Program-made: the position numbers and the translations under genes
The notes under the pieces: model-generated
What the model was told of the DNA's origin: nothing
What the model saw: the letters and a program-made list of their open reading frames with translations, nothing else
Databases searched by the model: none
Shown here: positions 16,500 to 48,758 of the stretch, piece by piece
Position numbering within the stretch: position 1 is the first letter of the stretch
Layout of the letters: each line of letters opens with the position of its first letter
Source: a bacterium
GTDB lineage: Bacteria > Patescibacteriota > Minisyncoccia > Phycocordibacterales > Phycocordibacteraceae
Assembly: GCA_037200965.1 (NCBI GenBank)
Contig: JBBCGK010000001.1
Span: 576,001 to 640,000 of the forward strand
Direction of reading: 5' to 3'
DNA: 64,000 nt

Positions 16500-16874
16500 T
16501 TATCCGTTCAAATGTGCCTTACAGGTCGCCGCAGCAGGGTCGGCGTTAAGGCGGTCTTCTTCAATCGGTTCGCCGGAAACGGTGCAGATGCCGTAGGTTC
16601 TCTTCTCAATGCGGTCGAGCGCGGCAAGCACTTCGTTATAGCGTATTTCAAGGTCGCTCAGAATCCCCGCGTTTTCCTCATATGCCTCCTTCTGGTCCGC
16701 AGCGTCTACGGGATCCGGTTCGGAGCCGGTCTCGGGAGGAACGGTTTCCCAGTCGCCCGAATTCCCGGGATTCCTGCGCCCAAGGCTTGCAAGCTCGCTT
16801 TCAAGCTTTGCCTTCTCTTCCGCAAGCCTCGCTTTGTATGTATTGGTGTCGGTCATATCGGCCGATTCTAGCAC
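16500..16874 (-). CDS. DksA/TraR-family protein (degenerate C-terminal zinc finger)
   Basis: Coiled-coil N-terminus and a C-terminal CTVSGEPIEEDRLNADPAAATC. Confidence 0.6.
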   Translation of the reverse strand: MLESADMTDTNTYKARLAEEKAKLESELASLGRRNPGNSGDWETVPPETGSEPDPVDAADQKEAYEENAGILSDLEIRYNEVLAALDRIEKRTYGICTVSGEPIEEDRLNADPAAATCKAHLNG

Positions 16875-35599: not shown

Positions 35600-36160
35600 T
35601 AATACCCCAATTCCCCGCGGCTCTGCCGCGGGGTACCGCTAAGGAGGGTTCGGGAACCGTTGGTTCCCGAGATACAATACGCGCATGGCCGTCGTCCGTT
35701 CGAACCACTGCGCCTTCGACACCCACTACCACATCGTCTTTCCGGTCAAATACCGCAAAGCACTCCTGACACCTGTCGTCACCAAGGCAATTCGGGATAT
35801 CGCTGGCGATATAGCCGAACGGTACGACATCGTCTTCGAGCAGCTCGGTACCGACCAGAACCATATCCATATACTGTGCTCCTTCCATCCCAAATACAGC
35901 GGGGGAGATGTCGTACGGATGTTCAAGTCCATCACCGCAAAACAGCTGTTTGAGCGATTTCCCGAATTGAAGAAGGACCTCTGGGGCGGAGAGTTCTGGG
36001 CAGACGGCTACTATATCGCCACCGTCTCCACACACGGCGACTGGACCACGGTCGAACGCTATGTCGCTAACCAAGGAAAGACGAGCGGACAACCAACCCA
36101 ACTCACGATTCTCTGACGGCCATGCACGACTCAATACCCCGGGGCTCTGCCCCGGGGTTG
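35600..36160. mobile_element. IS200/IS605-family element (tnpA only) bounded by subterminal GC hairpins
   Basis: Left hairpin CCCCGCGG-CTCTG-CCGCGGGG (35613-35633). Right hairpin CCCCGGGG-CTCTG-CCCCGGGG (36137-36157). Both are preceded by AATACCCC. Confidence 0.7.
35685..36116 (+). CDS. tnpA: IS200/IS605 family HUH (Y1) transposase TnpA
   Basis: Motifs HYHIVFPVKYRK and NHIHIL. Confidence 0.85.
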   Translation: MAVVRSNHCAFDTHYHIVFPVKYRKALLTPVVTKAIRDIAGDIAERYDIVFEQLGTDQNHIHILCSFHPKYSGGDVVRMFKSITAKQLFERFPELKKDLWGGEFWADGYYIATVSTHGDWTTVERYVANQGKTSGQPTQLTIL

Positions 36161-36247: not shown

Positions 36248-36661
36248 TTAGAGTGGAACGTCGGCCGAAGGCGAGATTGCCGTACCGGTCGCGGCAATGT
36301 TCACCACGCCGCTGTGGAGAGCGAGCCCGGTGGCGGCTACCAGCGCTTCCGAGGCGTTCGCCGCGACGACCGTCTTCACGTCGCCGTTCACGTTTATGTA
36401 TTGATACGTGCCTGACGGGTAGTTGGCATCCGTCGTCGTTCCGCCGGGGAGCGACGCGCTATCGCCTGCGTTCAAGAAGCCCATATCAAGCACCACACCA
36501 CTATGCGGAGCGATATTGATCGCCTGCGCGAGCGCCTGCTCGGCGTTTGCCGCGTTGGTGTCCTGTATTTCCCCGCTCGTGTTCACGTAGTGGTATGTGG
36601 CTGCAAGCGAAGCGGTGGGGAGCGCAAGCAGCATTACGGCAAGAAGGAGTATTTTCGTCAT
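36248..36661 (-). CDS. small secreted protein with two internal ~45-aa tandem repeats
   Basis: Signal peptide MTKILLLAVMLLALPTASLA. Repeat units YHYVNTSGEIQDTNAANAEQALAQAINIAPHSGVV and YQYINVNGDVKTVVAANASEALVAATGLALHSGVV. Confidence 0.55.
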   Translation of the reverse strand: MTKILLLAVMLLALPTASLAATYHYVNTSGEIQDTNAANAEQALAQAINIAPHSGVVLDMGFLNAGDSASLPGGTTTDANYPSGTYQYINVNGDVKTVVAANASEALVAATGLALHSGVVNIAATGTAISPSADVPL

Positions 36662-37965: not shown

Positions 37966-37992
37966 ATAACCGTATCACTGTGATACGGTTAT
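37966..37992. promoter_or_regulatory. perfect 12-bp inverted repeat ATAACCGTATCA-CTG-TGATACGGTTAT immediately upstream of the fic ATG
   Basis: Seen directly in the sequence. It ends 5 nt before the ATG at 37998. Confidence 0.5.
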
Positions 37993-37997
37993 CCTAT

Positions 37998-39062
37998 ATG
38001 ATTGATACGATAAAAAGTTCCGTTCAAGCGAATCTCTTTGAATTCTTATTCCGGAGTGGCAGCGGCAAGTCCTCCGAGCTGCATTCTTTCATTGCTCGAA
38101 AAGGAGCGGACGACGTGTCGCTCGTTACGATAAAACGGCTTTTGGGAAGGCTGCAAAAAGAAGGATCCCTTGCGGTCGCGGGGAAAGGTCCAGCCACCCG
38201 CTACGCCCTTACTCCTTTGGGAAGACTTACGGCAAAAGTCGATGCGCACGCATACTGCGCCGAGGAACCCGACCGCCGGTTCGGTCTGGCCGGGTATCAG
38301 TTCGATCTTTTCCCGGCGCTCGCCTTCGATCCGTTCTCTCCGAAAGAACTCGAAGCGCTCGAAACGGCAACCGCTGGGTATCGGGGAAAATCGAACGGGC
38401 TATCGGAAGCGCTCCGTCGGAAAGAGCTCGAGCGTTTCGTGATAGAGCTCTCGTGGAAATCGTCGAAGATAGAAGGCAACACCTACACGCTCCTTGATAC
38501 CGAGCGTCTCCTTAAAGACGGCAGCGAAGCGGCGGGGCACGGCAAGGACGAGGCGACGATGATCCTCAATCACAAAGCCGCGTTTTCTTATATTACCGAG
38601 CATCGCGAACGGTTTTCGGCATTGACGCGCGCGGGCGCGGAGGAGGTGCATGATCTTCTTACCCGCGGGCTGTCGGTCGCACGCGGCTTCCGCTCCGGCC
38701 TCGTGGGGGTGACCGGCTCCCGCTATCGGCCGCTCGACAACCGCTACCAGATCGAGGAGGCTTTCGAAGAGCTCGCGCACGCGGTCGGCCGCATGCCGCA
38801 CGGCTACGCGAAAGCGCTCGTCGCGCTCGTCGGCCTAAGCTACATCCAGCCGTTTGAGGACGGCAACAAGCGGTCGGCGCGCCTCATGGGGAATGCGCTC
38901 CTTCTTTCCCACGGCCTTTCGCCGCTCTCCTATCGGAGCGTGAGCGAAGAGGCATACCGCGAGGCGATGCTCGCATTCTACGAGCTCAACACTCTCGAGC
39001 CGTTCAAGGCGCTTTTTCTCGAGCAGTATCGGTTCTCCGCCGAAACGTACGCGCTTTCGTGA
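37998..39062 (+). CDS. Fic-family protein (Fic/DOC) with N-terminal wHTH
   Basis: Fic motif IQPFEDGNKRSARL (HPFx[DE]GNGR-like). Start chosen at the ATG (MIDTIKSS); the ORF track's upstream start is a GTG inside the palindrome. Confidence 0.8.
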   Translation: MIDTIKSSVQANLFEFLFRSGSGKSSELHSFIARKGADDVSLVTIKRLLGRLQKEGSLAVAGKGPATRYALTPLGRLTAKVDAHAYCAEEPDRRFGLAGYQFDLFPALAFDPFSPKELEALETATAGYRGKSNGLSEALRRKELERFVIELSWKSSKIEGNTYTLLDTERLLKDGSEAAGHGKDEATMILNHKAAFSYITEHRERFSALTRAGAEEVHDLLTRGLSVARGFRSGLVGVTGSRYRPLDNRYQIEEAFEELAHAVGRMPHGYAKALVALVGLSYIQPFEDGNKRSARLMGNALLLSHGLSPLSYRSVSEEAYREAMLAFYELNTLEPFKALFLEQYRFSAETYALS

Positions 39063-39860: not shown

Positions 39861-40133
39861 CTATTTAACCGCGTCCTTAAGCGCCTTGGCCGCGCGGAAC
39901 TTCGGAGTGCGGGTCGCGGCGATCTTGATTGACTCGCCGGTGCGGGGGTTCCTGCCGGTGCGTGCCGGGCGGGCCTTCGCTACGAAGATGCCGAGGCCTG
40001 CGATCGAAACCTCGTCGCCTTTCTTGAGGCCGTCCGTGATGCACTCGATCATCGTCTCGACCGCGCGCTCCGCGTCCGCCTTGGTCGAACCAAGAACGCC
40101 GTGCACTTTGTCTACGATAGCTGCTTTATTCAT
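39861..40133 (-). CDS. hup: HU-family DNA-binding protein
   Basis: Motifs MNKAAIVDKV...SIAGLGIFVAKARPARTGRNPRTGE. Confidence 0.9.
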   Translation of the reverse strand: MNKAAIVDKVHGVLGSTKADAERAVETMIECITDGLKKGDEVSIAGLGIFVAKARPARTGRNPRTGESIKIAATRTPKFRAAKALKDAVK

Positions 40134-40344
40134 ATTCTGGTCGGGGTTTTACCTATAATCCCTACCTAAAGCAGGGCTTGGCCTAAAGTATAGGAAATAG
40201 GCGGTTTTGTGCAACTGGCCTTGATATAAGCAGGGGACAGAACTAGGACCGTATTCACAGAATACTACCTTTCGGCGGGCCATCCGCAGGACTCCTTCCC
40301 GGGAATTGCGAAAAACCATAATTCCCGGTAATATAGGCCGTATT

Positions 40345-41307
40345 ATGAAGATTTATCTGCCAAACAGCGCTTTCCTTGGAAACATAGACTCCTTCTTCCG
40401 GGGATTTGACCCAAGCGATCCCCAGACACTTCAGGTAACTGCGAACAAGAATTGGATATCGGTTCACCCACTCGTGCTCACTATGCTTGCCGCACTTGGT
40501 AACACGATTACCCCGGAGAATCTCCATTTCGAGGTGCTTGAGGCGCGTTCGAAGCATTACTTCGAACGTATGGGTCTTTTCAAGCACCTGGGCTTGTATT
40601 CCGGCATGTCCATTACCGAACATGACCCAAGCGGCAGATTCATACCGCTTACGCAGGTTATCGACGCGACTGACCTTACGCGGTTCGTCACCGACATGAT
40701 CCCCTTACTCCATCTTTCTCCGACTCATGCGGAACCAATCCGGTATATCGTGAGCGAACTGGTGCGGAACGTGATCGAACACGCGGAAACCAGGGAAGGC
40801 GCGTTCGTTGCCGCTCAATATTATCCAAAGAGCAACACAATCCGGATCGGTATCTGCGACGCCGGGATCGGTATTACGAAAAGTATCCGCCGTTCTCATC
40901 AGGCTAGTGGCGACCTGCAAGCCATCCGCCTTGCCCTGACTCCGGGAATTACCGGTACGACGCCGCGCGAGGGTGGCAATGAGCAGAATGCGGGAGCCGG
41001 ATTGTTCTTCGTGAAATCAATCGCGGCCGTCAATGGAGACTTCTTCGGTATCTATAGCGGGAACGCATTCTACAAGCTTCTGCGGCAAGACAAAGAATCT
41101 CGCGATCTCCTTCATCCCGACCCGTTTGAGGATCGACATTCGGCGGGGCAGGACTATCCGTACTGGCAGGGAACGGCAATTGGTATCGATATATGTCTTG
41201 ACGCCCACGAGCGCTTTACCACCCTTCTCGGTCATATACGGGGTGCATACGCCAGAGCCGTCCGCGAACGCAAGCGTGACCGCTATAGAAAACCCGTATT
41301 CATATGA
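40345..41307 (+). CDS. GHKL/histidine-kinase-like ATPase (RsbW/SpoIIAB-like N-box) with N-terminal extension
   Basis: Motifs SELVRNVIEHA, GICDAGIGI and GAGLFFVKS. The start is uncertain (TTG at 40306 or ATG at 40345). It overlaps the next gene by 4 nt (ATGA). Confidence 0.6.
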   Translation: MKIYLPNSAFLGNIDSFFRGFDPSDPQTLQVTANKNWISVHPLVLTMLAALGNTITPENLHFEVLEARSKHYFERMGLFKHLGLYSGMSITEHDPSGRFIPLTQVIDATDLTRFVTDMIPLLHLSPTHAEPIRYIVSELVRNVIEHAETREGAFVAAQYYPKSNTIRIGICDAGIGITKSIRRSHQASGDLQAIRLALTPGITGTTPREGGNEQNAGAGLFFVKSIAAVNGDFFGIYSGNAFYKLLRQDKESRDLLHPDPFEDRHSAGQDYPYWQGTAIGIDICLDAHERFTTLLGHIRGAYARAVRERKRDRYRKPVFI

Positions 41308-41594
41308 AAACCATACCTTTACGGCCCCTTACGGGCCCGTTTGCCGAAAACAAGGATATCGCGAGGATGATCCGGCTTGAGATGATTACTCCCGCGCTCT
41401 CCGAAGATGGAGAAGTCATTCTCGACTTCTCAGGAATCGAGGGAGCAACCCAGTCTTTCGTTCACGCGCTTATCAGCGAACTGTTTCGTCAGCACGGAAG
41501 CCAGATTCTCGACCGCATCAGGTTCAGGGACTGCAACAGTACGTTGCAGGAGGTCATCACGATAGTGACCGAGTATATGCAGGAAGCGGAATAA
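41304..41594 (+). CDS. small STAS-like (DUF4325-like) protein, putative partner of the upstream ATPase
   Basis: 96 aa (ILDFSGIEGATQSFVHALISELF) translationally coupled to the GHKL gene. Confidence 0.5.
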   Translation: MKTIPLRPLTGPFAENKDIARMIRLEMITPALSEDGEVILDFSGIEGATQSFVHALISELFRQHGSQILDRIRFRDCNSTLQEVITIVTEYMQEAE

Positions 41595-41600
41595 GCTCCC

Positions 41601-43109
41601 TTACCGTGCAAACTCCACCACCCTGTTCTCCCGTATGATATTTATCTTTATTTCCCCCGGGTACTTGAGCTCTTCCTGGATACGCTTGGAGATATCCTTG
41701 GCGAGCCGGTGCATGGCGAGATCGGTAATCTTGCCCGGGTTCACGAACACGCGTATTTCGCGTCCGGCTTGTATGGCATAGACTTTCTCGACGCCTTCGA
41801 AGCCCCCCGCGATGCGCTCGAGTTCTCCGAGGCGCTCGAGATAGCGCTCTACCGTGTCCCTTCTCGCGCCGGGGCGTCCGCCGGATACTGCATCCGCCAC
41901 CTGGACGATGATCGATTCCGGCGTTTCATACGGATATTCCTCATGGTGCGACTGCATGGCTTGTATCACGCGCTTGTCGACGCCGAATTTCTCGAGAAGG
42001 CGGCGACCGATCTCCACGTGCGTGCCCTGCACTTCGTGGTCGACGGCCTTGCCGATGTCGTGGAGAAGGGCACCCGTTCGCGCGACGGCCGCGTCGGCCC
42101 CGAGCTCGGTCGCAAGCATCGAGGCGAGATGCGCCATTTCGACCGAGTGCGTGAGAACGTTCTGTCCGTAGCTTGTACGGAAATGGAGGCGGCCGAGAAG
42201 CGCGATGAGCTTAGGGTCAAGTCCGACGACCCCCGCTTCATACGCGGCCTTCTCGCCCTCCTGCTTCACTATCTCGGCGACTTCCGCCCGGGTCTTCTCG
42301 ACAGCCTCTTCTATCTTCGCGGGTTGGATGCGCCCGTCAGCGATAAGCTTCTCAAGCGCGATCTTCGCTATGTGGCGGCGCAGCGGATCGAAAGAGGAGA
42401 GGGTGATCTTATCCGGCGCATCGTCGATAAGGACATCGACGCCCGTCGCCCGCTCGAAGGCTTTTATATTGCGGCCTTCCTTGCCGATGATCTTGCCTTT
42501 CATCTCTTCTGAGGGGATGGTGACGGCAAGGCTCATCACCTCCGCGTTTACGGCATTCCCGAGGCGGTGTATTGCGGCAATCAGGATGCTGCGTGCCTTT
42601 TCCTCGAGCCGCTCGCGGCCGTGCGCTTCGAGCTTCTGGATGCGCGTAAGAATGGCCTCCTCCTGCCCGCTCTCTACCTCTTTTATCAAAGCCTCGCGCG
42701 CGTCCTTTTCCGTGAGGTGGCCAGCGCGTTCGAGTTCTTTGGTGCGTTTCTTTGAAAGTTCGTCGGCGACTTCCATCGCATTCTCGGCCTCGCGCTCGCG
42801 CTCGCGAACGTCTTCCGTCGCGGTATCGAGGTCGCGCTGGCGCTCGTCGAGGAATTCTTCTTTCTTCGCAAGCCGTTCCTCGCGTTCCCGGAGGGGATCG
42901 AGCATTTCGGTCTCAAGGGCCTCGGCCCTGGCCTGCGCCTCTTCGAGCACCTTCGCGGCCGCTTCCTTGGCGGCGAGGATCCGCTGCTTGATTTCCAATT
43001 CCAAAGAGCCCCGCTGTGAGAGCGAGACGAGGACGCGGAGCACGTAGCCGAACGCGATTCCCGCGACGCCCGAGAGCGCGAGCAGGGTGAGGATGATCTT
43101 GAGAGACAT
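41601..43109 (-). CDS. rny: ribonuclease Y
   Basis: N-terminal TM, a coiled coil, a KH domain (GKEGRNIKAFE) and an HD domain (LLHDIGKA). Confidence 0.9.
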   Translation of the reverse strand: MSLKIILTLLALSGVAGIAFGYVLRVLVSLSQRGSLELEIKQRILAAKEAAAKVLEEAQARAEALETEMLDPLREREERLAKKEEFLDERQRDLDTATEDVREREREAENAMEVADELSKKRTKELERAGHLTEKDAREALIKEVESGQEEAILTRIQKLEAHGRERLEEKARSILIAAIHRLGNAVNAEVMSLAVTIPSEEMKGKIIGKEGRNIKAFERATGVDVLIDDAPDKITLSSFDPLRRHIAKIALEKLIADGRIQPAKIEEAVEKTRAEVAEIVKQEGEKAAYEAGVVGLDPKLIALLGRLHFRTSYGQNVLTHSVEMAHLASMLATELGADAAVARTGALLHDIGKAVDHEVQGTHVEIGRRLLEKFGVDKRVIQAMQSHHEEYPYETPESIIVQVADAVSGGRPGARRDTVERYLERLGELERIAGGFEGVEKVYAIQAGREIRVFVNPGKITDLAMHRLAKDISKRIQEELKYPGEIKINIIRENRVVEFAR

Positions 43110-43309: not shown

Positions 43310-44059
43310 ATGAAATCTCCGGGCATGGAAAGCCGGGAAGTCCCTCCGAAAATCCTTTTCAAGGTTACTCTCATGCGGCATGAGAAGCCGTATTACAAGG
43401 ACGAAGGCCATGATCTGACGCCAGAAGGGGTCGAGCGCGCGGTGGAGACAGGAAAGCAGATGCGGGAACAGGGAACGGTAAGCGACGAGGATGAGATATA
43501 TCTCGTGCATTCGCCCCAGCCGCGCGCGAAAGGTACGCTCGAATTCGTCGCGCAAGGAGCGGGTTTGGAAGGAAAGCCTATGGTGAGCAGCAACCAGCTC
43601 CGCAAGAGCGACTTTCTGGATATGGACGCGTTTTTGGCGCGGGTAGCGGAACTCGGCCATGACCAGGAAAAGATAGCGCAAGACCACTACACGCACCCGA
43701 TGCATGCGGAAGGTTCCGTGATCGTCGAGCCGCATGCGCACAAGAAGGAAAGGCTGTATCGCGCATTCGAATATCTTCTCAAGTGGTTCGAGAGCCATCC
43801 GGCAGAAGGGAAGACCGCGCACGTCATCGCGGTATCCCATTTCGAGATCATTACCCACCTAATCGATGACGTCTTCGGTATGGAAAACATCGGAAGATAT
43901 AATGCGCCGAGTTTCGGCGAGGCAGTCCAGATCGAAGCCCGGCCGACTGCGGAAAGCAACCGGGTGCTCCTGAAGGTTACTTTTGACGGGAAAACCAAGG
44001 ATGTTTATTTCGACCGGGCCGCCCGTTCCATCGTTATCGACGGCCAGGCCGCCTCCTAA
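43310..44059 (+). CDS. histidine phosphatase (phosphoglycerate-mutase-like) family protein
   Basis: Motifs LMRHEKP ... AVSHFE. The start is uncertain. Confidence 0.5.
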   Translation: MKSPGMESREVPPKILFKVTLMRHEKPYYKDEGHDLTPEGVERAVETGKQMREQGTVSDEDEIYLVHSPQPRAKGTLEFVAQGAGLEGKPMVSSNQLRKSDFLDMDAFLARVAELGHDQEKIAQDHYTHPMHAEGSVIVEPHAHKKERLYRAFEYLLKWFESHPAEGKTAHVIAVSHFEIITHLIDDVFGMENIGRYNAPSFGEAVQIEARPTAESNRVLLKVTFDGKTKDVYFDRAARSIVIDGQAAS

Positions 44060-48188: not shown

Positions 48189-48216
48189 TTGACGAAAGAG
48201 CTACTATGGCTATAAT
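48189..48216 (+). promoter_or_regulatory. sigma70-like promoter TTGACG-16 nt-TATAAT
   Basis: Near-consensus boxes. The -10 box ends 7 nt before the antitoxin ATG at 48224, suggesting a leaderless or short-leader transcript. Confidence 0.45.
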
Positions 48217-48223
48217 GGCTCGT

Positions 48224-48499
48224 ATGACCAAAACGCTCATCAATGAAAATATGATCGACGCGCGGGAGGCGAAGAATAACTTCGGCGCGCTTATCGACGC
48301 CGCGCAGCGCCGCCCTATCATCATCCGCAAGCACGGGCGCAAGGTCGCCGTCATGCTCTCGCCGGAGGAATTCGCGCTTTTCGAGCGCATGGAGGACATC
48401 GTGTGGGGAAAGAAGGCGATGGCGGCACTCAAAAAGAACGATTTTCTCGGTCCGGCCGCGTCCAAACGCGTTCTCGACAAGTACCGCAATGCGGCTTGA
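48224..48499 (+). CDS. type II antitoxin, Phd/YefM family
   Basis: Sequence MTKTLINENMIDAREAKNNFGALIDAAQRRPIIIRKHGRKVAVMLSPEEFALFE. Confidence 0.65.
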   Translation: MTKTLINENMIDAREAKNNFGALIDAAQRRPIIIRKHGRKVAVMLSPEEFALFERMEDIVWGKKAMAALKKNDFLGPAASKRVLDKYRNAA

Positions 48500-48758
48500 G
48501 CTTTCCAAAGCATTAGACCGTTTCCTCGCCCGCATTCCGAAGAAACACGCGGGCCAAATTACCCGTAAGATCGACGAGTTGCTGATCAATCCCTATCCCA
48601 TAGACAGCAAGCTCCTGTCCGGCATCCCTCTGTATCGCGTCGATGTAGGCGAATACCGGATAGCGTACCGCGCGTATACGACTATGCTCGTCGTGGTTCT
48701 TGTTGGTAAGCGAAACGACGGCGATGTTTACCGCCGCCTGGCGAGGATGTTCCGTTAG
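48489..48758 (+). CDS. type II toxin, RelE/ParE family
   Basis: Sequence GEYRIAYRAYTTMLVVVLVGKRNDGDVY. It overlaps the antitoxin by 11 nt. Confidence 0.65.
   Translation: MRLELSKALDRFLARIPKKHAGQITRKIDELLINPYPIDSKLLSGIPLYRVDVGEYRIAYRAYTTMLVVVLVGKRNDGDVYRRLARMFR

Follow-up and report, generated by a model that had tools for sequence, protein, structure and literature searches.

A predicted GHKL kinase–STAS switch cassette with a conserved promoter operator in bacteria and archaea

The window analyzed here is a stretch of 64,000 nucleotides from a Patescibacteriota genome (GenBank assembly GCA_037200965.1, contig JBBCGK010000001.1, positions 576,001 to 640,000 of the forward strand), and all coordinates below are those of the window. 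It carries a two-gene cassette made up of a GHKL-type protein, here called K, and a small STAS-like protein, here called S, transcribed behind an inverted repeat. We found that this pair belongs to a very widespread family of free-standing K-S cassettes, which occur in bacteria and archaea alike and share a 17-bp operator placed within the promoter type of each host. We lean towards reading the locus as an autonomous, self-repressed, signal-activated kinase-STAS switch cassette from the superfamily of CapK-CapS and VapK-VapS. Its output may be toxin-antitoxin or defence-like, and the wording of an initial annotation made from the letters alone, that of a signalling or defence-type module, is still the best reading of it.

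The K gene lies at 40345..41307 on the forward strand (320 amino acids, a predicted VapK/CapK-like GHKL protein kinase), and the S gene lies at 41304..41594 on the same strand (96 amino acids, a minimal DUF4325 STAS protein), both assigned from open reading frame (ORF) calls, Pfam, homologues, and AlphaFold 2 (AF2) models. They share an ATGA at 41304..41307, in which the start codon of S sits on the stop codon of K, and S is predicted from this overlap to be translationally coupled to K. An in-frame TTG at 40306 would offer K an alternative start and a length of 333 amino acids, and this codon falls within the putative -35 box described below. Because the homologues are 319–321 amino acids long and begin with MKI..., the ATG at 40345 was taken as the start. 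S directly follows K in all 87 loci with DNA downstream, and the exact ATGA overlap was seen in 72 of the 87, as well as in a relative of 44% identity; the remainder reflect a crude estimate of the start codon. The GHKL ATPase and small STAS-like pair with an ATGA overlap, as first annotated, is therefore well founded.

The closest described systems come from a single recent study. CapK, a helix-turn-helix (HTH)-STAS-GHKL protein activated by single-stranded DNA (ssDNA), phosphorylates the repressor CapS, a STAS protein with a winged helix-turn-helix (wHTH), on S54, and phosphorylated CapS leaves its palindromic operators, de-repressing the downstream immune operon (PMC13373217). CapS controls a second promoter besides its own, and CapK-CapS regulate CBASS, Bub, and Thoeris operons (PMC13373217). 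VapKSC is a toxin-antitoxin system directed against phages, in which the proposed role of VapK (STAS-GHKL) is to phosphorylate the antitoxin VapS, a STAS domain with a C-terminal helix, on S48, freeing the PIN toxin VapC; the VapK-VapS phosphorylation step is supported by mutants and modelling (Chambers et al., EMBO J 2026, PMC13373217). For our comparisons, the VapK and VapS sequences were reconstructed from the AlphaFold 3 model file that the authors had deposited.

S matched the Pfam family DUF4325 (STAS-like) with 48.9 bits (E 5.5e-13), and its AF2 model is a four-stranded alpha/beta domain with a predicted local distance difference test (pLDDT) score of 96.5. The best structural matches in the PDB were the STAS domains of SLC26 transporters, RsbS, and SpoIIAA, with probabilities of up to 0.99 but weak E-values (~1e-2) and template modelling (TM) scores of 0.5–0.56. 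The STAS/DUF4325-like nature first proposed for the small protein is borne out by these matches. Its homologues are all ~96 amino acids long and 55–72% identical. When the S-family profile was compared with PDB sequences, one notable match was returned, "Escherichia VapS" (9z7o, E 0.002), and hhalign aligned S with VapS over the whole STAS domain (probability 87%, E 3.7e-6); VapS is itself a DUF4325 protein (E 2.7e-17). Invariance, the VapS alignment, and the AF2 model together point to T49-Q50-S51 (codons at 41448..41456, forward strand), at the N-terminus of helix alpha2, as the candidate phospho-acceptor site. Each of these three residues is invariant in 68 homologues, and the helix begins at residue 50 in the model, which makes T49 its N-cap. 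The S proteins of fusion-type and phage-borne relatives carry Ser at all three positions.

K matched Pfam HATPase_c over residues 129–232 (27.9 bits, cut-off 26.4) and fell just under the cut-off for HATPase_c_2 (27.0 versus 27.4 bits). Its AF2 model (pLDDT 82.8, predicted TM score, pTM, 0.85) consists of four parts, covered by three stretches of the gene on the forward strand: an N-terminal domain of beta-alpha-beta, STAS-like topology (residues 1–107, 40345..40665), the GHKL or Bergerat-fold domain (residues 108–245, 40666..41079), and a C-terminal region (residues 246–320, 41080..41304) that holds a beta-hairpin at residues 266–284 and then a basic helix at residues 291–314. The ATP-binding motifs E138/N142 (N-box, 40756–40770), D172xGxG176 (G1 box, 40858–40872), and N215-F221 (G2 box, 40987–41007) are invariant in 69 homologues. 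A structure search with K returned Ser-kinase anti-sigma factors as the top matches, the GHKL fold being nearest to SpoIIAB and RsbW and lacking a transducer domain. A BFVD structure search gave matches to the GHKL domain only, and the K profile had no significant match among PDB sequences. Alignments show that the beta-hairpin is common to VapK and that the basic helix is specific to the clade and leads into a conserved C-terminus (..RERKRDRYRKPVFI; consensus ..AVRERKKxRYKKPxFI); helix and C-terminus are common to a broad clade down to ~30% identity. The last 25 residues carry a net charge of +7 in the window K, with a median of +6.5 across the family.

A direct BLASTP comparison of K with VapK gave an E of 2e-14 at 27% identity over K residues 129–296, which include the beta-hairpin, and hhalign gave a probability of 96.9%. 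Both proteins can also be aligned over almost their whole length with three intermediate sequences (P0286, P0371, and P0382). In the N-terminal domain, which is supported by the AF2 model and by these intermediates, W37 (TGG codon at 40453–40455), S39, H41, and P42 are invariant. F54 of VapK, the proposed ssDNA-stacking residue (W68 in CapK), aligns with S39, which precedes P42 by three residues and follows the invariant W37 by two. Judged from sequence, the N-terminal domain, which had been recorded as unknown in the initial annotation, is predicted to be a sensor domain of the VapK/CapK type.

The inverted repeat first noted at the start of the locus is real and lies on the promoter, but its arms are 9 bp long rather than 7, and it proved to be one form of a conserved operator. 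It reads CCGGGAATT-N12-AATTCCCGG at 40299–40328, with the left half-site at 40299..40307 and the right half-site at 40320..40328, where it abuts the putative -10 box. The pattern CCGGGAAW-N(0-30)-WTTCCCGG has a single occurrence in the window, where 0.01 would be expected, and a chance origin can be set aside because identical half-sites are found in the identical place, upstream of K, in ~80 independent loci. When the 120 nt upstream of K were aligned for these ~80 loci, nearly all carried a 17-bp palindrome, TACCGGGA(A/T)TCCCGGTA. The window repeat is the wide form of this family operator (half-site TACCGGGAAT), as distinct from the compact palindrome TACCGGGAATCCCGGTA. The same widely spaced form was observed in the Kaiserbacteria relatives L001, L010, and L012 and in L061/L070, its half-sites standing 12–22 nt apart and bracketing the -35 to -10 region.

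The operator is nearly exclusive to the module's own promoter. Matches to ACCGGGAWTCCCGGT with at most two mismatches were counted across 81 non-redundant loci (1.0 Mb). Of 107 matches, 104 fell in the 130 nt upstream of K, clustering near -60/-55 and -30, while 3 lay elsewhere in the ~1 Mb of flanking DNA; 70 loci had one or two copies. No further copy was found in the 64-kb window, where two-mismatch matches occurred at chance level. A sequence resembling overlapping operator half-sites, CCCGAATTCCCGGGATTCCTGC at 16756–16777, was rejected as a candidate, since it lies inside a coding ORF and is likewise at chance level. A scan of IMG/VR for the 17-mer operator returned 29 contigs, which is approximately the chance level by our own estimate, and none of them carried K or S.

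The same operator is fitted into different promoters in the two domains of life. In bacteria, the first copy ends just before TTGACA, and the second fills the spacer and enters the -10 box, so that the right half-site continues directly into TATAAT (..CCCGGTATAAT). A stringent -35/-10 pair was found in 30 of 57 bacterial loci, and in 26 of those 30 the -10 box ends 4–12 nt before the start codon. The two copies are spaced 28 bp apart in 25 of 29 bacterial loci; as 28 bp is not a whole number of helical turns, an argument that the paired palindromes lie on the same face of the helix was dropped. In archaea, a TATA box (TTTATAAATA) follows the full palindrome, and the start codon is immediately preceded by a half-site, (A)TTCCCGGTA. 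The TATA box was present in 21 of 23 archaeal loci, 29–33 nt before the start codon, and a sigma-70-type hexamer pair was present in none of the 23. Since both layouts are too tight to accommodate a leader or ribosome-binding site, the mRNA is probably leaderless, or nearly so. Leaderless mRNAs are translated in bacteria and archaea alike. In the window, the putative -35 box TTGCGA (40306..40311, forward strand) overlaps the left half-site and was placed by its position relative to homologous loci, which have TTGACA there. The putative -10 box TAATAT (40329..40334, forward strand), placed in the same way, follows the -35 box after 17 nt and ends 10 nt ahead of the ATG, and the two hexamers together match 8 of 12 consensus positions.

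More distant relatives carry other palindromes. In the pairs of 44% identity (L089–L091), a different palindrome, ATACCCGTAG...CTACGGGTAT, is arranged in the same layout, around TTGACA and abutting TATAAT, while a group of 46–48% identity has CAAAACTGGGC-N14-GCCCAGTTTTG farther upstream, ~85–50 nt before the start codon. The operator thus co-varies with the module. Because of this co-variation, because the operator is near-exclusive to the module's own promoter, and because hosts with no transcription factors in common carry it unchanged, the protein that binds it is probably encoded by the module, and the cassette would be autoregulated. K is basic (median isoelectric point 9.5) and S is acidic (median 5.4) and has no DNA-binding domain, which makes K the more likely operator binder, and the DNA-binding part probably resides in K. 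At the variant-operator loci L067, L032, and L030, unusual substitutions were observed mainly in the N-terminal domain of K (residues 10–13, 34, 38, and 66) and almost nowhere in S; with three to five loci, this is only a hint that the N-terminal domain sets DNA specificity.

A search of a database clustered at 90% identity found 2984 relatives of K at E <= 0.001, the best 120 of which are full length and 61–100% identical. With the K profile and clusters at 50% identity, there were 120 representatives at E <= 1e-30, 1293 at <= 1e-10, and 4089 at <= 1e-3, and the many matches at looser thresholds indicate that a tight K family is nested in a large superfamily. A census of GTDB contigs with one genome per species, in which lineages were taken from record titles, placed K in at least 550 species at ~60–77% identity. 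The best 80 loci are 59–76% identical and span a wide range of hosts. Those from the candidate phyla radiation (CPR) include Kaiser-, Zambryski-, Davies-, Uhr- and Saccharibacteria, and the archaea include Woese-, Nano-, Aenigm-, Micr-, and Iainarchaeota together with metagenome-assembled genomes labelled Methanosarcinales and Thermoplasmata. The other hosts are Elusimicrobia, Omnitrophota, Margulis- and Saganbacteria, Gamma- and Deltaproteobacteria, Planctomycetia, Actinobacteria, Ignavibacteria, and Spirochaetia. Identity between bacterial and archaeal members is so high that horizontal transfer is the likely explanation.

Comparison of neighbourhoods across genomes, a check that the initial annotation had suggested, brought out S as the only constant companion of K, with no third conserved gene. 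Every other neighbouring family was confined to 7 or fewer of the ~82 loci, and such recurrence stems from synteny between close relatives. Likewise, no recurrent partner gene emerged from 143 flanking ORFs examined by clustering, Pfam, and PADLOC. The neighbours are mostly housekeeping genes, with a few integrases and AAA_21/AriA-like, Fic, and restriction-type matches.

Diverged members of the superfamily occur as fusions and on mobile elements. Three natural K-S fusion proteins of 400–424 amino acids were found (P0376, P0381, and P0389). Two of them, P0376 and P0381, match positions 46–393 of the PADLOC model PDLC02567 "DrmA" (1750 positions) with E-values of 6e-100 and 9e-82, and K itself matches positions 76–253 (E 3.5e-17), which is explained by this DISARM-type protein starting with a K-S module. 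As stand-alone proteins of 400–417 amino acids, P0376 and P0381 could be mis-called as DrmA fragments. A pair of 44% identity, with its own promoter and a different palindrome, was found on a siphovirus-like contig (IMG/VR UViG_3300008474_000007; L090 8001-9250), inserted between head and tail genes and near genes for portal, protease/major head, and tape-measure proteins. Burkholderia phage vB_E188 (PQ789830.1; L123 3231-4438) encodes a 305-residue STAS+HATPase protein and an overlapping 98-residue DUF4325 protein at ~28% identity, located between an integrase and a BrnT/BrnA pair, and the N-terminal domain of this kinase matches Pfam STAS (PF01740, E 1.5e-7). Francisella phage KIRK reportedly has a pair of 293 and 112 amino acids, the latter DUF4325, in a similar position (PMC7924643). 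A K-like gene also lies beside BrnTA on a 6.8-kb plasmid of A. baumannii. In Rhodomicrobium lacus (CP125860.1, 3396626-3397905; L126 5001-6280), a pair of 45% identity sits between a resolvase and an integrase-like gene, and a further relative pair follows an IS1595 transposase. Rhodomicrobium lacus, a cultured alphaproteobacterium, and phage vB_E188, from a cultured host genus, are experimental entry points.

Taken as a switch, the cassette might work as follows. K would be a SpoIIAB-type Ser/Thr protein kinase with a VapK-like ligand-sensing N-terminal domain, and S its partner and substrate. Both would be made from one leaderless transcript, S being translated by coupling to K, and a module-encoded protein or complex that contains K would sit on the operator half-sites and hold the promoter off. 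A stress or infection signal, which by analogy with CapK and VapK may be ssDNA held between the N-terminal domain and the kinase domain, would activate K. Active K would then phosphorylate S at T49 or S51, where helix alpha2 begins, and the K-S complex would change state, releasing the promoter and leaving K or S free to act. As there is no separate effector gene, the output would most likely come from K itself, for example through a phosphorylated conserved host target and resulting growth arrest; alternatively, free S may act on a partner encoded elsewhere. We favor a toxin-antitoxin or abortive-infection-like role for K because the cassette is autonomous and occurs in mobile-element contexts. 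A more detailed version can be offered tentatively, in which K combines ligand sensor, operator-binding autorepressor, and effector kinase, and S is a decoy substrate that restrains it. The cassette would then be a portable infection- or DNA-damage-sensing system of bacteria and archaea, a new kinase/pseudosubstrate class of toxin-antitoxin or abortive-infection system, whose leaderless transcript and exchangeable promoter enabled repeated crossing between the two domains.

Several observations weigh against this reading of the locus as a self-repressed switch. The canonical acceptor S48 of VapS aligns, without a gap, with the invariant Q50 of S, and phosphotransfer would thus need the flanking T49 or S51. 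Pfam recognizes no DNA-binding domain in K or S, and the N-terminal domain of K alone gave no significant result in direct profile comparison with the VapK STAS domain or DUF4325. No effector gene is visible at the locus. Consensus scans for promoters and terminators over 40100–41750 found nothing; the promoter is weak by consensus, and its placement in the window comes from homology only. Enrichment in defence islands was not found, though no formal test was made. Finally, in Kaiserbacteria and Zambryskibacteria the pair is syntenic beside RNase Y, which suggests long-term vertical retention and not a purely selfish element.

Among the alternatives, a classical toxin-antitoxin addiction module comes nearest, with K as a kinase toxin acting on a universal target, S as antitoxin or decoy, and the K-S complex repressing the promoter. 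It differs from a signal-activated switch chiefly in having no signal input, the cassette persisting since its loss is harmful. Two overlapping, autoregulated genes with palindromes over the promoter fit this picture, as does the patchy host distribution, which agrees with horizontal transfer. So do the relatives found next to BrnTA on a 6.8-kb plasmid and in a prophage, the cassette inserted in a phage, and the fact that a relative of S, VapS, is a proven antitoxin. The conserved sensor-type domain of K, however, argues for a ligand input, the toxin of VapKSC is VapC and not the kinase, and the syntenic position is kept across the CPR clade, so that we regard pure addiction as unlikely. It is also improbable, to our judgment, that K is a non-kinase GHKL ATPase that binds or clamps DNA in an ATP-dependent manner, as MutL, MORC, or topoisomerase VI-B do, with S as an unphosphorylated regulator that binds K depending on ATP or ADP. 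The glutamine at the acceptor position of S and the basic character of K, the best candidate for operator binding, would suit such a protein. The top structural matches of K are nevertheless Ser-kinase anti-sigma factors, no transducer domain is present, K shares homology with VapK, a relative of the experimentally demonstrated kinase CapK, and invariant T49 and S51 flank the canonical position, where fusion and phage S proteins have Ser.

A strongly conserved, sequence-specific operator could also mark a transcription-factor system in which K-S controls a dispersed regulon, the copy at its own promoter being autoregulatory, and CapS does regulate a second promoter. The operator counts given above speak against this, with 3 of 107 copies outside the module promoter in the ~1 Mb of flanking DNA and no further copy in the window, and such a regulon could hardly be shared between hosts as unlike as DPANN archaea and Proteobacteria; we consider it quite improbable. 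Least credible of all is a canonical Rsb/SpoIIA partner-switching module or a two-component sensor histidine kinase. The GHKL fold is nearest to SpoIIAB and RsbW, the TIGR01925 and RsbW models match weakly, and some database homologues are named "sensor histidine kinase" or "anti-sigma regulatory factor". Yet no sigma factor or PP2C phosphatase was found within ±10 kb of the cassette, as the initial annotation had already said for sigma factors, nor do they occur at the other loci, and many of the hosts are archaea. Archaea have no sigma factors. NCBIfam scores for K fall far under their cut-offs (for example, 20 versus 135 bits, and 10–14 bits against cut-offs of at least 300 for the histidine-kinase models). 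K has no match to a DHp/HisKA domain, and there is no response regulator, that is, no adjacent receiver-domain gene.

Set beside described systems, the K-S family combines familiar parts in its own way. The likeness to partner switching that was first proposed holds for the pairing of a SpoIIAB/RsbW-type GHKL fold with a STAS partner folded like SpoIIAA and RsbS, but its nearest described counterparts are VapK-VapS and CapK-CapS. From SpoIIAB-SpoIIAA and RsbW-RsbV it differs in the extra N- and C-terminal regions of K and in S being DUF4325, not the canonical STAS family, in addition to the missing sigma factor and phosphatase. With VapKSC it shares a homologous GHKL domain and terminal beta-hairpin, a DUF4325 partner, and the order of the genes, kinase ahead of STAS. 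It is not VapKSC, since VapC is lacking at all examined loci and S, which ends at residue 96, is without the inhibitory C-terminal helix of VapS (residues 94–116). Further differences are the basic C-terminal helix of K, which is absent from VapK, the Gln aligned with VapS S48, the family's own conserved promoter operator, and its occurrence in archaea. With CapK-CapS it shares the kinase-STAS pair, palindromic operators on its own promoter in narrow and wide forms, and the suggested logic by which the kinase inactivates the repressor complex and so raises expression of the pair. It is not CapKS, because K has no N-terminal HTH (it starts at strand beta1), S has no wHTH, and no regulated immune operon follows; the genes downstream are heterogeneous, no second operator is present, and the half-site is TACCGGGAAT instead of the TTAA of CapS. 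Neither a wHTH nor VapC is present in the window module.

Three other comparisons are looser. The DISARM protein DrmA (PDLC02567) contains a K-S fusion of sensor domain, GHKL, and DUF4325 in its first ~393 of 1750 positions, whereas K and S here are separate proteins with the helicase/DrmA body neither attached nor adjacent. HipBA, a functional analogy only, is likewise a two-gene operon with a protein kinase, palindromes over the -35/-10 region, and an association with mobile elements, but HipA has a eukaryotic-like (Hanks-type) fold where K is GHKL, and the HipBA antitoxin has an HTH and its gene comes first. Type II-like toxin-antitoxin systems in general share the two co-transcribed genes, the palindrome over the promoter, and the patchy, mobile-linked distribution.

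The use of a GHKL kinase and a STAS substrate as a stress or immune switch is already known, having been described in 2026. Those immunity-controlling switches were reported from bacteria only and are joined there to a repressor domain, PIN toxin, or immune operon. The literature searched did not describe the stand-alone two-gene form, the basic C-terminal kinase helix, or the leaderless architecture, nor a 17-bp operator conserved across bacteria and archaea within promoters specific to each. The K-S family would be the same switch as a free-standing cassette, with one operator set within sigma-70-type promoters of bacteria and TATA-box promoters of archaea. Should this be confirmed, the signalling logic reaches archaea and the reduced genomes of ultra-small symbionts, the cassette is a clean natural example of a regulatory unit adapting to cross between bacteria and archaea, and the pair offers a minimal system for asking what the kinase senses and targets.

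In the window, the cassette is flanked by a divergent HU gene and by a convergent RNase Y gene, whose stop codon lies 6 nt past that of S. The surrounding ±10 kb contain RarA, a Fic protein, an IS200-type transposase, a serine recombinase, ClpP, NusA, and a Phd/YefM-type pair. The G+C content at third codon positions is 0.60–0.65 in the module, somewhat under the 0.70–0.75 of the flanking housekeeping genes, and Rfam gave no match at the locus. A histidine-phosphatase superfamily protein beyond RNase Y (His_Phos_1, E 1.8e-7, 43310-44059, forward strand) was considered as a module part and rejected, as it is not of PP2C type and is not conserved beside the cassette in other clades. The IS200-type Y1 transposase (Pfam Y1_Tnp, E 4e-32) lies at 35685-36116 on the forward strand, ~4 kb upstream of the cassette, and the serine recombinase lies ~10 kb upstream, at 1-448 of the matching public contig L124. 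On the reverse strand at 36248-36661, a 137-residue ORF without a Pfam match combines an N-terminus resembling a signal peptide with two internal repeats (..YHYVNTSGEIQDTNAANAEQALAQA.. and ..YQYINVNGDVKTVVAANASEALVAA..). The Fic/DOC-family protein (360 amino acids, 37980-39062, forward strand) directly follows RarA/MgsA, and Fic-type genes flank the cassette at two further loci (two members matched Pfam Fic and two PADLOC SoFic). About 7 kb downstream of the cassette, at about 48215-48758 (L124 17871-18414), a Phd/YefM-type antitoxin gene and an overlapping partner of 89 amino acids apparently form a separate toxin-antitoxin pair.

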